Positions 6,450 through 14,364 of a stretch of 16,260 bases of DNA are shown here, in pieces (within the stretch, counting starts at the first letter, position 1; every line of letters starts with the position of its first letter). The stretch lies in the UHGV virus genome UHGV-0143875, one strand, 5' to 3'. A model generated the notes under the pieces. It did no database searches and was not told the DNA's origin. It worked only from the letters and a program-made list of their open reading frames with translations. The DNA comes from a virus. The position numbers were made by a program, and so were the translations under genes.

Positions 6450-7804
<1,355 letters not shown>

Positions 7805-9569: not shown

Positions 9570-9858
9570 TAAGCGTGAAATATCGCAAATTATCGCAACT
9601 TTTACTGATGAAGATTACGAACGAATCAACAGTGAAGTTGATCGCCTCTGCAAACGTTGCGACCCAATAAGCGAAATGCTTCGCTCATATAAACCAGATG
9701 AACACACTAAAGATGCTATCGACTGGCTGGAAGATGATGACTGTGACTATCAGGAAAAAGCCGCTGAATGGTTCTGGGATGCAATAACAGAAAGAGTTAA
9801 GGCTGAATATGCCTTCGCAATATTCAAACGCAGACAAATTTATGGAGAAGCAGCATGA
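9547..9858 (+). CDS. Hypothetical acidic protein, 103 aa, immediately upstream of and coupled to the RecT gene
   Basis: RBS AGGAG 5 nt before ATG; MMILTLNDKREISQIIATFTDEDYERINSEVDRLCKRCDPISEMLRSYKPDEH...; Asp/Glu-rich; stop overlaps the RecT start (ATGA). In the position lambda uses for kil/gam. Confidence 0.6.
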   Translation: MMILTLNDKREISQIIATFTDEDYERINSEVDRLCKRCDPISEMLRSYKPDEHTKDAIDWLEDDDCDYQEKAAEWFWDAITERVKAEYAFAIFKRRQIYGEAA

Positions 9859-10757
9859 GCAATATCGTTGAATTCGTTAAACATCAGGAGCAGTTATTCT
9901 GCGGGGCATTGACTGAACAGACGGTGACATGGGCTAAGGAAAGCCAGTTTGCAATTCAGTATTTCCAGAAAAATGATTACCTGGCTAAAACGGCACTGGC
10001 AAATCCAACCAGCGCACAGAACGCCATCATCAATGTTGCGGCGATCGGCATCACCTTAAACCCGGCTAGCAAACTGGCTTATCTAGTTCCGCGCGACGGC
10101 ATGGTTTGCCTTGATATAAGTTACATGGGATTACTTCACCTTGCACAGTCGACAGGATCAATTAAGTGGGGACAATGCAAACTGGTGTACTCAAACGACA
10201 CCTATGAATCGAATGGCCTTGATTCAGCACCCACTCACAAATACAACGCATTTGGTGAGCGAGGCTCTATTGTTGGTGGTTATTGCACGGTTAAAACAGC
10301 AGATGGTGACTACCTGACTGAAGAAATGAGTCTGACAGAAATTAAAGCCGTGGAAGCAACGAGCAAGGCAAAGAATGGACCGTGGATGACATTCTGGGAA
10401 GAGATGGCGCGTAAAACCATAGTTAAACGCGCCAGCAAATACTGGCCTAAAGCCCAGCGACTGGATAATGCCATTCACCTGCTTAACGAAGATGAAAGTA
10501 TGCATCAGGAACCAGTTATGCCGCATAAATCAGAGGAAGATATCCGCGAAGATGAACGGAAACGCCAGCAGGAAATAACGGATAAAGCACAACTTCTTTG
10601 TGATGAAATGGCTCAGGCTGAAAACATGGATGATTTGAAGAGATATTTTGCAGAAGCATATCGCCTGACATCTGGAATGAAATTGCAGCAGAACGTACAA
10701 GCCATTTACATAGAATGCAAAGCGAAACTGGAGGTTGCCAGTGAGCAAACTGTATGA
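9855..10757 (+). CDS. recT: RecT-family single-strand annealing recombinase
   Basis: 300 aa; contains the ...NGPWMTFWEEMARKTIVKRASKYWP... block characteristic of the RecT family (compare Rac RecT GPWVTHWEEMAKKT by recall); occupies the lambda bet position. Confidence 0.8.
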   Translation: MSNIVEFVKHQEQLFCGALTEQTVTWAKESQFAIQYFQKNDYLAKTALANPTSAQNAIINVAAIGITLNPASKLAYLVPRDGMVCLDISYMGLLHLAQSTGSIKWGQCKLVYSNDTYESNGLDSAPTHKYNAFGERGSIVGGYCTVKTADGDYLTEEMSLTEIKAVEATSKAKNGPWMTFWEEMARKTIVKRASKYWPKAQRLDNAIHLLNEDESMHQEPVMPHKSEEDIREDERKRQQEITDKAQLLCDEMAQAENMDDLKRYFAEAYRLTSGMKLQQNVQAIYIECKAKLEVASEQTV

Positions 10758-11223
10758 AATAGCCAATGAATACGCAAAGTTGATGGATTCGGATTTAGAG
10801 CCAGAGATGATTGCTGACACAATAGAAGGCATGGAAGGAGAATTTACCGATAAAATAGAGCAACTTCTTGCCATTATTAAAAATGAATCTGGTTATGCTG
10901 AACGCCTCAAGGACGAGGCAAAGTCACTGAATGAACGAGCAGCAGTAATTCAAAATAAGATTGATAGCATTATGGCATATATAGCGTCATCGCTTGAAAT
11001 GGTTGGCAAGAAAAAGATTCGAGCAGGTATTCACCAGGTAACAATCCGCAAACCGTCAGAAACTGTAGAAATCATCGACTCAAGCGCCCTTCCTCAAGAA
11101 TACGTTGAGTTTGAAACGACAATTAAAGCCGACAAGTTGGCAATAAAACACCAACTAAAAGCAGGAATAAATATCCCCGGCGCTCAACTCAAAGTTGGGA
11201 AACCTTCACTTCTTATCAAATAA
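10741..11223 (+). CDS. Hypothetical protein (~160 aa) downstream partner of RecT, probable GTG start
   Basis: GGAGG RBS 7 nt upstream of GTG at 10741; overlaps the RecT 3' end; predicted helical and charged: SKLYEIANEYAKLMDSDLEPEMIADTIEGMEGEFTDKIEQLLAIIKNESGYAERLKDEAKSLNERAAV.... Function unknown. Confidence 0.55.
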   Translation: MSKLYEIANEYAKLMDSDLEPEMIADTIEGMEGEFTDKIEQLLAIIKNESGYAERLKDEAKSLNERAAVIQNKIDSIMAYIASSLEMVGKKKIRAGIHQVTIRKPSETVEIIDSSALPQEYVEFETTIKADKLAIKHQLKAGINIPGAQLKVGKPSLLIK

Positions 11224-11847: not shown

Positions 11848-11978
11848 GAGGACTTGCATACAATCCCGGCATTCTTCCAGCAGAAATGATTATTCGCCAA
11901 CGCGTAAAGCCAATGCCATCGAGAGAGGAATTGCTTAAGAGAAATTCTTTTCCATCAGTGAATCAAACAAATATCTGA
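11844..11978 (+). CDS. Possible small protein (44 aa), ATGA-coupled to the preceding gene
   Basis: [44 protein letters not shown]; start overlaps the upstream stop; below the ORF-track size cutoff. Confidence 0.3.
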
Positions 11979-12006
11979 ATACGATGTGGCGCAAAGGAGG
12001 CAACCA

Positions 12007-12567
12007 GTGAGTGTAACGGTTGAAAAGATTGATGTGTTGTCATTCGTTATAACCGGTGCAGAGAGACTAGATCCGGTTCGAGTGATGATTGAAAACTACG
12101 AACCTGGAAAGGGAAGAATCACCATCACCTGCTACGGAAAAGCGTGGACTGCGGCTTGGTTTGCTATGGGCGGTGATGATGTGCAGACGTTCATTAAGCG
12201 AGTCAGCAACGATTATCTAATCGACAATTTCGACCCTCAACTGCTAAGCACGGTCGACGATGACAACGATGCAAATCTGCTTTTCGTGAAGTCAGAAATC
12301 ATAAAGTTACGAAGAGAGAGAGAAATAGACGTCGTACTGGCTCGCGAAATGTGGGACGAGGCGGAAAACGCCGATGACGTAAAAGAAAGCTGCTGCTGTT
12401 TCGGCGTCGGTAACAAACTACTGAATCTCTTTGGTGATGATCCGTGGTATGCCAACTGGCCAACGATACCAAACCCGAAATACCAGTATCTGGAACGCGT
12501 ACTTAATGCAGTGAGAGACGGTCTTAAGCAAATAGATGCAGGAGAGCAAAGCGATGAAAAACCGTAA
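12007..12567 (+). CDS. Hypothetical protein (~186 aa), probable GTG start
   Basis: AAGGAGG RBS at 11994-12000, GTG at 12007; ...VTVEKIDVLSFVITGAERLDPVRVMIENYEPGKGRITITCYGKAWTAAWFAMGGDD...; acidic central region; first gene of a tightly coupled five-gene block. Confidence 0.55.
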   Translation: MSVTVEKIDVLSFVITGAERLDPVRVMIENYEPGKGRITITCYGKAWTAAWFAMGGDDVQTFIKRVSNDYLIDNFDPQLLSTVDDDNDANLLFVKSEIIKLRREREIDVVLAREMWDEAENADDVKESCCCFGVGNKLLNLFGDDPWYANWPTIPNPKYQYLERVLNAVRDGLKQIDAGEQSDEKP

Positions 12568-12730
12568 GGCAAAACGACTTTTTTTACAGCGACCTGTGCG
12601 TGTGGTGGAGCTGGTTATTAGCAACCATAAGATAGCGGTACTCCATCCATTTGGTCAGGTGGCTTTTGCCGCAAAGCGTAAGCCTACTGCGTCACAGAAC
12701 AGGCGGAAGAAAGGGTACGCTGTAAGATGA
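12554..12730 (+). CDS. Small basic protein (58 aa), paralog 1 of a tandem pair
   Basis: ATG at 12554 (internal Met of ORF 12536..12730): MKNRKAKRLFLQRPVRVVELVISNHKIAVLHPFGQVAFAAKRKPTASQNRRKKGYAVR; Lys/Arg-rich. Confidence 0.5.
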   Translation: MKNRKAKRLFLQRPVRVVELVISNHKIAVLHPFGQVAFAAKRKPTASQNRRKKGYAVR

Positions 12731-12918
12731 AAAACCGTAAAGCAAAGATGCTTATTTCCCGTGTATACAGACGTTGCTATCCCAGCCAATGGTTGAGGGT
12801 TAGCAATCGCCGTGTGGTGTTGTTTTCATTTTCTGGAATTGCCAGAGAGGGAGTCAAAGATAAGCGTAGCGCGGCGCAAAACCGCTGGAAAAACCACTTG
12901 TGCACTAAAGGAGCGTGA
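12727..12918 (+). CDS. Small basic protein (63 aa), paralog 2 of a tandem pair
   Basis: MKNRKAKMLISRVYRRCYPSQWLRVSNRRVVLFSFSGIAREGVKDKRSAAQNRWKNHLCTKGA; ATGA-coupled to paralog 1; shares the MKNRKAK N-terminus and an S/A-QNR-R/W-K C-terminal block. Confidence 0.5.
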   Translation: MKNRKAKMLISRVYRRCYPSQWLRVSNRRVVLFSFSGIAREGVKDKRSAAQNRWKNHLCTKGA

Positions 12919-12919
12919 T

Positions 12920-13435
12920 ATGGCGTTAACACACCGCGAACTCTGTCAGATTGCGTACAAGTTCCTTAAGCGCAACGGGTTCAAGGTTTGTTTTCATGAC
13001 CGCTTTATAGCTGTAACCAGTACCGGAGAACAGCCAGATGCTATGGGATTCAGAAATTCAGCATCATGCCTGATAGAGGCGAAGTGTTCTCGTGCTGACT
13101 TGTTGGCAGATAGAAAAAAGCGTTTCCGTAAAAATCCGTCTCTTGGAATGGGCGACTGGCGATTCTTTATTAGTGAGCCGGGAATTATTTCAATTGAGGA
13201 TTTACCTCCCGGCTGGGGATTACTTCACGTTGTTAACGGAAGAGTACGGAAAGTACATGGATGGCCCAAGGGGAATTGCTGTTGGGGTAACCCTGAAGAT
13301 AAACCTTTTATTGGGAATAAGCAGGTTGAATGCGATTACATGTTATCTGCATTAAGGCGCATGGAGTTGAGAGGGCACCTTAATGAAATATATGACGGTG
13401 TAATTGTTAATAAGAAAGAAGGAAACGCGGCATGA
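12920..13435 (+). CDS. Hypothetical protein, 171 aa, with a PD-(D/E)xK-like motif (possible nuclease fold)
   Basis: ATG at 12920 after AAGGAG RBS: MALTHRELCQIAYKFLKRNGFKVCFHDRFIAVTSTGEQPDAMGFRNSASCLIEAKCSRADLL...; the D-x(n)-E-A-K arrangement resembles restriction-endonuclease-fold catalytic motifs. Inference only. Confidence 0.5.
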   Translation: MALTHRELCQIAYKFLKRNGFKVCFHDRFIAVTSTGEQPDAMGFRNSASCLIEAKCSRADLLADRKKRFRKNPSLGMGDWRFFISEPGIISIEDLPPGWGLLHVVNGRVRKVHGWPKGNCCWGNPEDKPFIGNKQVECDYMLSALRRMELRGHLNEIYDGVIVNKKEGNAA

Positions 13436-14364
13436 TCACTATTACCAAAGAGTTCACCAAAGAGCAGTTGATTGAGCAGGCTAAGAAGAATATTGAGGTT
13501 CTTCGCGTTGCGGTGGAAAGAGTCCCAGGCGCTTATGATGCGGCGGTTATTCATCTCAAGCTGGCTGAAATTACGCTGGCATCGCTGGAAGCAGAGCCTG
13601 TTCTGTATCAGTCCTGCACACGCCCCACCTGGAATAGCGGAGTTCCGTGGACGGAATGGAAAGAACGTAGTCGTGAGGGCTACGAAGACGATTTGCGCTT
13701 TACAGACACGCCTGACCATGCCGGTTGGATAAACAAATGTCGAAAACTATATACCACTCCGCCAGCACCGATAGCGTTAGAGGCCATTGAAAACGCAATT
13801 GAATATATCCGCAGTATCGCTTTTCACATCGATGAAGACGATTACCACGGCAAGCATATTGCGTATTTCATGCGACAAGCACTGGTCTGGCTGGAAGGGC
13901 ATTCATGCAGCAACGACAGACAGGGTAAAGCCGAGAATCAACCAGTACGCGGCAACCAGACTGCCGAATCCAATCGCGGTAATGAGTGGACCGGCAATCC
14001 TGATATTGATAACGCCATCATCATGCTCGATCGCATAGATACGCTGGAAAGTTGCGATGATGACCGTATTGAGGCGGTTAAGGCTGTTTTGCGTAGACTG
14101 GCTGGCAACTATCCGGTAACTCCGGATGGTTGGATAAGCTGTAGTGAGCGAATGCCAGAAATGGGAGAGCGACAATGCTATGTGTTAGCAGCTGACTTTA
14201 AAAACAACTACCCACCAAACATCCCCAACACTCAGGTCGGCGTATATGGCGACTGGTTTAATGATGGCAATCCCACTTGGGATGACGGTGATGGCGAAGA
14301 CCTGTATCTCAAAGAGGTAACCCACTGGATGCCGCTACCGGAACCGCCACAGGAGGTGAAATGA
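13432..14364 (+). CDS. Hypothetical phage protein, 310 aa, with a C-terminal region resembling the DUF551 prophage domain
   Basis: ATGA-coupled to the upstream gene; C-terminus ...QCYVLAADFKNNYPPNIPNTQVGVYGDWFNDGNPTWDDGDGEDLYLKEVTHWMPLPEPPQEVK resembles DUF551-type tails by recall; N-terminal two thirds unassigned. Confidence 0.55.
   Translation: MITITKEFTKEQLIEQAKKNIEVLRVAVERVPGAYDAAVIHLKLAEITLASLEAEPVLYQSCTRPTWNSGVPWTEWKERSREGYEDDLRFTDTPDHAGWINKCRKLYTTPPAPIALEAIENAIEYIRSIAFHIDEDDYHGKHIAYFMRQALVWLEGHSCSNDRQGKAENQPVRGNQTAESNRGNEWTGNPDIDNAIIMLDRIDTLESCDDDRIEAVKAVLRRLAGNYPVTPDGWISCSERMPEMGERQCYVLAADFKNNYPPNIPNTQVGVYGDWFNDGNPTWDDGDGEDLYLKEVTHWMPLPEPPQEVK

Follow-up and report, generated by a model that had tools for sequence, protein, structure and literature searches.

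Two tandem small basic genes of a lambdoid prophage as ancient phrog_1380 paralogs in an array probably built by recombination

The stretch of DNA analysed here (hereafter the window; 16,260 nt of UHGV virus genome UHGV-0143875) is a lambdoid prophage with a cI-type repressor gene on the + strand (6771-7403) and cII-like and O-like genes on the - strand. Two small genes, ORF-A and ORF-B, lie head to tail on the + strand and overlap by the four bases ATGA; they belong to a run of small accessory genes that follows the genes for RecT and a Mu-Gam-like protein (Table 1). Since cI, RecT, the Gam-like gene and Int are all on the same strand as the pair, we place the pair in the early-left operon, where it is part of the P_L accessory (ea/b-like) region. 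Within positions 11900-13500, no terminator-like sites and no excess of promoter-like sites were found. The two genes probably encode small basic accessory proteins, with early expression from P_L predicted from their position.

Table 1 Features at and around the ORF-A/ORF-B locus (positions are those of the window).
Feature	Position	Strand	Description
RecT	9855-10757	+	
Mu-Gam-like gene	10735-11223	+	
Upstream accessory gene	11986-12567	+	193 aa, phrog_3451; stop codon TAA at 12565-12567, inside the ORF-A 5' block
ORF-A Shine-Dalgarno region and spacer	12539-12553	+	CAGGAG at 12539-12544; upstream part of a portable start module of ~40 nt
ORF-A	12554-12730	+	58 aa, MKNRKAKRLF...SQNRRKKGYAVR-stop; type-A phrog_1380 member with internal tail; pI 12.0, net charge +15
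ORF-A 5' block (MKNRKAK)	12554-12574	+	both other frames stopped (TGA 12555-12557, TAA 12565-12567)
ORF-A central conserved block S-N-H-K (ISNHK)	12620-12631	+	S and N invariant in the family; synonymous variation AGC/AGT and AAT/AAC
ORF-A internal tail/junction module QNRRKKGYAVR-stop	12695-12730	+	ends in the ATGA overlap with ORF-B
ORF-B	12727-12918	+	63 aa, MKNRKAKMLI...AAQNRWKNHLCTKGA-stop; type-B phrog_1380 member with terminal tail; pI 11.7, net charge +15
ORF-B 5' block (MKNRKAK)	12727-12747	+	19 of 21 nt as in the ORF-A block; both differences are synonymous Lys codons
ORF-B central conserved block S-N-R-R (VSNRR)	12802-12813	+	from the family alignment and codon tables
ORF-B terminal tail module (QNRWKNHLCTKGA-stop)	12877-12918	+	holds the Shine-Dalgarno sequence of the downstream gene, AAGGAG, 12908-12913
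Downstream accessory gene	12920-13435	+	171 aa, phrog_631/9263; starts 2 nt past the ORF-B stop
DUF551 protein	13432-14364	+	
DUF4222		+	
Lambda-type integrase	from 15190	+	

With an upstream stop codon inside the start block of ORF-A and the ATGA overlap between the two genes, translation of ORF-A and ORF-B is probably coupled to that of their neighbours, and the AAGGAG in the tail of ORF-B would serve the next gene in coupled translation. This junction layout is the usual one in phage operons with coupled translation, and from it we infer probable coupling. Across the loci of the family the geometry is fixed. Specifically, upstream genes stop in the 5' block at either aTGA (+3) or ccgTAA (+13), and downstream genes begin 2 nt past the stop codon or share 4 nt with it. 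The neighbours themselves are diverse, with at least 16 unrelated gene clusters on the downstream side and at least 11 on the upstream side, which rules out a fixed partner gene such as the downstream 171-aa protein. When positions 12000-13500 were compared by megablast, 157 phage records shared pieces of the region at 90-99% identity with differing break points, as did 1190 of 5426 complete E. coli genomes at the same range of identity. Many genomes matched by megablast in the last ~60 nt of ORF-B only.

The two + strand units with near-identical 5' ends lie where the original prediction had put them. Their first 25 nt agree at 20 positions (19 of the first 20), and the 16.3-kb window holds exactly two occurrences of the pattern ATGAAAAACCGTAARGCAAA, where 0.00 were expected from 200 shuffles. 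These starts form a direct repeat (12553-12584 and 12726-12757; 81% identity over 32 nt, spacing 173) that is the sole direct repeat in 12400-13000. Homology of the two units, which had been described as tandem, small and basic with conserved ends, is borne out by a nucleotide local alignment score of 64 (26.5 +/- 4.8 for shuffles) and a protein global alignment score of 46 (-21 +/- 10 for shuffles). The similarity is not confined to the first ~25 nt as a shared start context would be, given that the frame-1/frame-1 protein comparison still yielded z = 5.5 after removal of the first 24 nt. The C-terminal re-convergence of the two proteins (SQNRRKK and AQNRWKN) turned out to be the conserved C-block of a protein family.

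That family is phrog_1380 (PHROGs, no assigned function), and we detected no difference between it and either ORF. Residues 1-58 of ORF-A match positions 1-60 of the 62 in the phrog_1380 profile (E 6.5e-23), and residues 1-62 of ORF-B match positions 1-61 (E 1.2e-32). The family is narrow, and its members are small, extremely basic phage proteins (~58-65 aa, pI 10.8-12.0) that share three in-frame blocks, MKNRKA (M(K/N)NRKA in the form used for testing), (I/V)SN(R/H) and (S/T)A(A/S)QNR, separated by variable stretches. ORF-A and ORF-B each carry all three blocks in one reading frame. The eleven columns M1, K2, N3, R4, K5, A6, S26, N27, Q51, N52 and R53 were invariant among 22 sequences and are kept in distant members, and the residue types conserved in the family are Asn, Arg, Lys, Gln, Ser and Trp. 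The central block (ISNHK in ORF-A, VSNRR in ORF-B) is a third conserved block that was absent from the original prediction.

The divergence between the two proteins had been attributed to frameshifting, that is, to a local tandem duplication followed by a frameshift in the middle of one of the copies, so that the proteins would share only their ends while the DNA stayed homologous throughout. To the eye the middles of the two proteins do look unrelated, and a weak frame-2/frame-2 score (z 4.9 with the 5' block) could be read in the same direction, although it dropped to 2.6 without the first 24 nt. We scored all three frames of both ORFs against a profile built from types C, D and F and distant members only, from which A- and B-type sequences were excluded to avoid circularity. 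Both ORFs matched this independent profile end to end in frame 1 (ORF-A, E 2.3e-19; ORF-B, E 1e-32), as they matched phrog_1380 itself, whereas every shifted frame of either ORF gave E >= 0.5. A middle that matches only in a shifted frame was not found, with cross-frame pairwise z of at most 2.6. The central S-N-(R/H)-(R/K) motif, G37 and K46 are kept in frame in both ORFs, and the nucleotide identity of the middles (~57% with gaps) is at background level. Because the profile matches are restricted to frame 1, we reject frameshift divergence, which we consider to have close to no chance of being correct.

To evaluate constraint on the protein, we used 80 family-encoding viral contigs, in which the family HMM located 109 copies with 72 distinct coding sequences. 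All 109 copies in the collected loci keep an open frame that matches most or all of the profile. Every invariant residue is encoded by several synonymous codons among the 72 coding sequences, as for K7 (AAG 36, AAA 35), N27 (AAT 52, AAC 20), Q51 (CAA 40, CAG 29), R28 (CGC, CGA, CGT and AGA), R53 (CGC, AGG and AGA) and G37, which has four codons. Synonymous variation is found at each of the mid-protein invariant residues S26, N27, G37 and K46, and the Q-N-R codons read CAG AAC AGG in ORF-A and CAA AAC CGC in ORF-B. Nei-Gojobori counts were pooled over sequence pairs, and the number of independent events is overstated in them by the phylogenetic relatedness of the sequences. Between types, the three blocks in order had pS of 0.55, 0.86 and 0.68 against pN of 0.06, 0.12 and 0.11. 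Within types pN/pS ranged from 0.00 to 0.44; type F (18 sequences) had pS 0.46 and pN 0.063, and the value for type B (0.43) was only moderately low. Mean column entropy at the first, second and third codon positions was 0.82, 0.65 and 1.12, the third position being the most variable, and distant members with diverged DNA keep the blocks as protein.

The block values (pS 0.55-0.86 against pN 0.06-0.12) reflect constraint on the protein rather than on the nucleotides. At the level of codon comparison, these substitution patterns demonstrate purifying selection on the protein in the family of ORF-A and ORF-B. Synonymous divergence was lower in the 5' block (pS 0.55), and over the first nine codons, than in the rest, and the codon for K2 was AAA throughout. 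A degree of constraint on the nucleotides, or homogenization by recombination, is also at work in this block, and its nucleotide conservation is the pattern that translation-initiation constraint together with recombinational homogenization would produce.

It had also been suggested that a structured RNA or repeated regulatory site might underlie the conserved blocks; a repeated binding site belongs to the same reading, in which the ORFs would be incidental. The conservation of the 5' block and of 18 nt upstream of it as nucleotides would be consistent with this suggestion (the 21-nt block is 19-21/21 identical in every compared pair and between all types), as would the tails, which are near-identical as nucleotides behind unrelated middles. 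However, the region 11900-13500 had no Rfam 15 match at E <= 1, folding of the two units was in no way unusual (z-scores -0.9 and -1.3), and neither inverted repeats at the pair nor a terminator was found. Between types, the synonymous sites of the blocks are heavily substituted, as the Q-N-R codons of ORF-A and ORF-B illustrate, and the conservation of the start region coincides with the Shine-Dalgarno sequence, the start codon and A-rich early codons, that is, with ordinary translation initiation. We regard an RNA or site origin of the blocks as very improbable.

The same comparison of coding sequences bears on the age of the pair. ORF-A and ORF-B differ at 75% of synonymous sites (pS 0.75, saturated) and at 47% of non-synonymous sites; on the basis of this saturation they are ancient paralogs, and by the same sequence measure their duplication is old relative to the surrounding, nearly identical prophage DNA. 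The tandem duplication in the original prediction holds insofar as the units are homologous tandem paralogs, and fails as local duplication followed by divergence, in view of the saturated pS and of the closer relatives that each ORF has in other phages than in its neighbour. A recent in-situ duplication with rapid divergence in the same frame would readily give the head-to-tail arrangement and the identical junction geometry. It sits poorly with a synonymous divergence at saturation in prophage DNA that is 92-98% identical to other phages, with B copies that are paired elsewhere with A, A2, C or D (and A also with D), and with close relatives of the middles that occur alone (D solo; the A2-like solo protein P0057). 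We consider this scenario highly unlikely.

Among 83 sequences (82 loci and the window), 58 carried a single copy, 24 carried two and one (locus L030) carried three, and all 26 junctions between copies were ATGA overlaps. The multi-copy architectures were A+B (8), C+B (7), D+B (5), A2+B (4) and A+D+B (1); solo copies were of type B, D, E or F, and an A+D array was found on a 108-kb phage-plasmid. A copy that is followed by another ends in QNRRKKGYAVR-stop or a close variant (QNRREKGYAVR, RNRREKG(Y/D/G)AVR), and in Escherichia lambdoid types the last or solo copy ends in QNRWKNHLRTKG(E/D/A)-stop. Tails and middles assort separately in these copies. D-solo and D-internal copies are identical at 105 of 111 positions in the middle and at 24 of 42 in the tail, while D-solo and B copies agree at 65 of 114 in the middle and 40 of 42 in the tail, and D-internal and A-internal copies at 64 of 111 and 34 of 36. 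The internal tail module as a whole keeps an identity of 34-35/36 nt whether the middle ahead of it is of type A, C or D, which are unrelated, and the terminal tail of ORF-B shares 40 of 42 nt with that of solo D-type copies with unrelated middles. The switch point of the tails is at the K-P-(S/T)-A-(A/S) codons just ahead of QNR.

That the C-terminal tail follows array position and not middle type points to recombination inside the conserved end blocks; in the sequences compared, the variable middles behave as cassettes with mosaic breakpoints in these blocks. The array would thus have been assembled from family members that had diverged beforehand, by homologous recombination with crossovers in the conserved ends. 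A middle could be replaced by double crossover or gene conversion, a copy could be added by unequal crossover in the 5' block (e.g., A+D+B), and the tail after QNR would travel with whatever lies downstream. This mechanism is the simplest account of the pattern. The saturated pS, the closer relatives elsewhere and the arrays with other first copies all argue for assembly by recombination and against local duplication. Taken together, ORF-A and ORF-B are in all likelihood same-frame genes and ancient phrog_1380 paralogs in an array built by recombination, whose products are most likely nucleic-acid binders. The locus is a compact and well-resolved example of how an accessory region is rebuilt via recombination in short conserved gene ends.

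When 1.84 billion cluster representatives were searched exhaustively with a profile of the family, only 46 proteins were found, and those inspected were short and unannotated; one of the 46 (P0088) is a spurious repetitive sequence. By tblastn, the family was present in 144 of 50,697 phage records, mostly Stx-converting and other Escherichia phages. Its carriers include 933W, VT2-Sakai, phiV10, TL-2011b and P1-like D6, as well as Salmonella Sashavirus phages (tblastn) and Escherichia phage Av-05 (BFVD). The taxonomic range was drawn from protein-source names (Escherichia, Salmonella, Citrobacter) and phage records. A species-level genome scan with the protein pattern confirmed no family member, and a species-level scan with a 21-nt degenerate DNA pattern gave chance matches from unrelated phyla, none with the family. 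In our literature search, no paper that names phrog_1380 or the MKNRKAK peptide was found.

Public catalogues already list both genes, as hypothetical proteins; records that correspond to ORF-A are F365_gp16 (TL-2011b) and WP_000797289.1, and those that correspond to ORF-B are WP_071783682.1 and PhiV10p51. The paralogy has been noticed before, as the phiV10 record likens p51 to p50 and VT2-Sa p08 (GenBank note on p51: similar to VT2-Sap08 and PhiV10p50). Gene calls for the family are inconsistent. In the 933W record the family gene lacks a CDS, and an overlapping +1-frame ORF is annotated in its place (ST933Wp08, by its appearance the downstream gene called too long); the sequence upstream of this 933W copy is the same as the Shine-Dalgarno region of ORF-A. 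Copy A is missed by PGAP on a phage-plasmid. The result is mainly an annotation clean-up, in that two genuine genes of one family are called inconsistently in public records. We see no sign of an unusual mechanism, and the gene content is that of an ordinary mosaic phage. A functional assignment would be useful, given how widely the family occurs in Stx-converting phages, which are of medical relevance.

With regard to function, neither ORF matched Pfam, NCBIfam or PDB sequences, and no family of the PADLOC-DB defence models was matched at E <= 1. An AlphaFold2 model from a 32-sequence alignment was of moderate confidence (pLDDT 74.3) and predicted a helix (4-13), three strands (20-26, 29-34 and 39-44) and a second helix (49-62). 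The comparison of this predicted model with known folds gave no match. Its alpha-beta-beta-beta-alpha topology suggested two leads. The first was a dsRBD-like fold, for which there was no structural match to solved dsRBD domains; the second was a beta-sheet DNA-binding domain of the integrase arm-binding/AP2 type, to which we detected neither profile nor fold similarity. Charge and residue composition are the features that suggest that the ORF-A and ORF-B proteins probably bind nucleic acid.

The conserved gene ends invite comparison with the boundary sequences of lambdoid phages, which are said to have been originally described in the HK620 genome paper. If the units were of this kind, they would persist mainly as portable homology for the shuffling of accessory genes, with peptides that do little or nothing in their own right. 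Several observations are in keeping with this. A stretch conserved as nucleotides does lie at the module junction between unrelated flanks, from about -18 to +21 in 55 distinct start contexts behind unrelated upstream genes, and unrelated genes with a fixed junction geometry are found on both sides. Because stops in the start module close both other frames, out-of-frame upstream genes end at most 14 nt from the start; breakpoints lie inside the end blocks; many genomes share just the ~60-nt terminal tail; and a boundary-sequence model of lambdoid phage mosaicism has already been published, as outlined in PMC3233612. Set against this, the middles too are under purifying selection within types (pN/pS 0.14 in F, 0.15 in E and 0.33 in D), S26, N27, G37 and K46 are invariant yet synonymously variable, none of the 109 copies has lost its open frame, and the conservation of the blocks extends at the protein level to distant members with diverged DNA. 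Conservation from a recombination role alone is not what we observed, as the blocks are kept as amino acids while their synonymous sites are substituted. We consider it unlikely that the units are mainly portable homology.

A somewhat less improbable, though still doubtful, extension is that each unit is a dual-purpose adaptor gene, with ends that serve as shuffling and coupling cassette ends and a variable middle that determines specificity and is driven by conflict. The ~40-nt start module would then provide a Shine-Dalgarno sequence, a start codon and a stop in each of the two other frames, and position-specific tail modules would carry the Shine-Dalgarno sequence of the next gene. If true, lambdoid, P1-like and other enterobacterial phages could use such genes to swap accessory genes and stack copies, and the hypervariable middle, set between fixed basic ends, would be the surface of a small protein that binds nucleic acid or a host factor, with counter-defence and host takeover as conceivable roles. 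What the data show is the recombination pattern and the purifying selection; a selected role in shuffling and a target are conjectural.

Paralogs of one family, equally in tandem, are found in Escherichia phage phiV10 (PhiV10p50/PhiV10p51), and VT2-Sa p08 is of the same family. In phiV10 (locus L029) the first copy is of type C and the second of type B, whereas the first copy here is type A, and the phiV10 p51 gene call is over-extended at its N-terminus such that it overlaps p50. A near-identical A+B pair is found in phage TL-2011b (F365_gp16), where nucleotide identity is ~96% over the two units together with the downstream gene, and in E. coli FDAARGOS_1059 (WP_000797289.1, WP_071783682.1), with 95% across both units. 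In TL-2011b, however, only copy A is annotated and copy B is absent from the annotation, and the pair sits between replication and terminase genes, whereas here it precedes the integrase. The two proteins resemble small basic nucleic-acid-binding phage proteins in size, in extreme positive charge and in conserved Arg, Asn, Gln, Lys and Trp; the likeness is a functional analogy, as no sequence or fold relationship was detected. With the lambdoid boundary sequences, as characterized in PMC3233612, the locus shares short conserved nucleotide stretches at junctions, unrelated flanking genes and breakpoints inside the stretches. It differs from them in that the stretches are the two ends of a coding gene under purifying selection and not non-coding linkers.

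Annotation of the phrog_1380 family, to which the small, very basic proteins of ORF-A and ORF-B belong, is inconsistent among the public records of TL-2011b, a phage-plasmid (NZ_CP062896.1) and phiV10. The TL-2011b record includes copy A and omits copy B, and PGAP calls the second copy on the phage-plasmid and omits copy A. Both copies are annotated in phiV10, where the p51 call is over-extended. The family gene of phage 933W is without annotation, and ST933Wp08, in the +1 frame, is annotated instead; ST933Wp08 seems to be the 933W downstream gene with its call extended too far. As in 933W, the +1 frame is open in our window, from a GTG within ORF-B into the downstream gene, and phrog_9263 (230 aa) joins the small protein and the 171-aa protein in one fusion.

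Features and their coordinates in the window and in related loci (L-numbers, loci carrying the family).
Feature	Location	Record or length
TL-2011b family region	L001 2705-2893	
Phage-plasmid family region	L085 ~1515-1691	NZ_CP062896.1
933W family gene	L206 1501-1686	
ST933Wp08	L206 1619-1906	
933W downstream gene (ATG)	L206 1688	
58-aa upstream ORF	L084 1342-1518	WP_001261528.1; also PhiV10p49
Upstream gene	window 11986-12567	193 aa
5' block, +2 frame	window 12553-12567	
Open +1 frame (GTG at 12812)	window 12812-13435	
Downstream gene	window 12920-13435	171 aa

Gene calls also vary at the 5' side of the family. In the window and related loci, the +2 frame of the 5' block (the conserved MKNRKAK start of each copy) encodes D-E-K-P-stop. 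DEKP is therefore the C-terminus of upstream proteins that stop at the TAA within the block, for example the one in this window and those of the L007 cluster. An in-frame upstream sequence leads gene callers to output 82-103-aa "fusions", such as P0002, named ead/Ea22-like, and P0017 (90 aa), found on 231 contigs. The commonest gene immediately 5' of the family (31/80 viral loci) is a separate ORF of 58 aa, MRVACI(G/D)LLPYPTRFW...AAKKRRR(A/T)KR, whose tail is very basic. This ORF lies outside phrog_1380, and its junction with the family gene is likewise an ATGA overlap.

With regard to the flanking proteins, the upstream 193-aa protein (phrog_3451) matched a PADLOC model for Type II restriction enzymes weakly, at E 0.0032 and 15 bits, a match that is probably not meaningful. 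The downstream 171-aa protein had no match in Pfam, NCBIfam or PDB sequences. It matched phrog_5429, "DNA repair protein", weakly (E 0.003), and carries a PD...E-A-K-like motif recognized by eye (QPDAMGF...CLIEAKC); it may be a PD-(D/E)xK-type nuclease.

At P0050 / P0051 (E. coli), one family copy breaks off after residue ~35 and runs on as unrelated sequence, and an overlapping product bears the name "transposase"; an IS element may thus have inserted into a family gene.

When window 12540-12925 was compared with E. coli genomes by megablast, more of the places bearing the family segment were plasmid-borne (310) than chromosomal (269). At ~50-130 kb, the majority of the listed family-bearing plasmids are as large as P1-like phage-plasmids typically are, and the 108-kb phage-plasmid L085 carries an A+D array. 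Judged from these sequence placements, the family circulates among lambdoid prophages and phage-plasmids alike.
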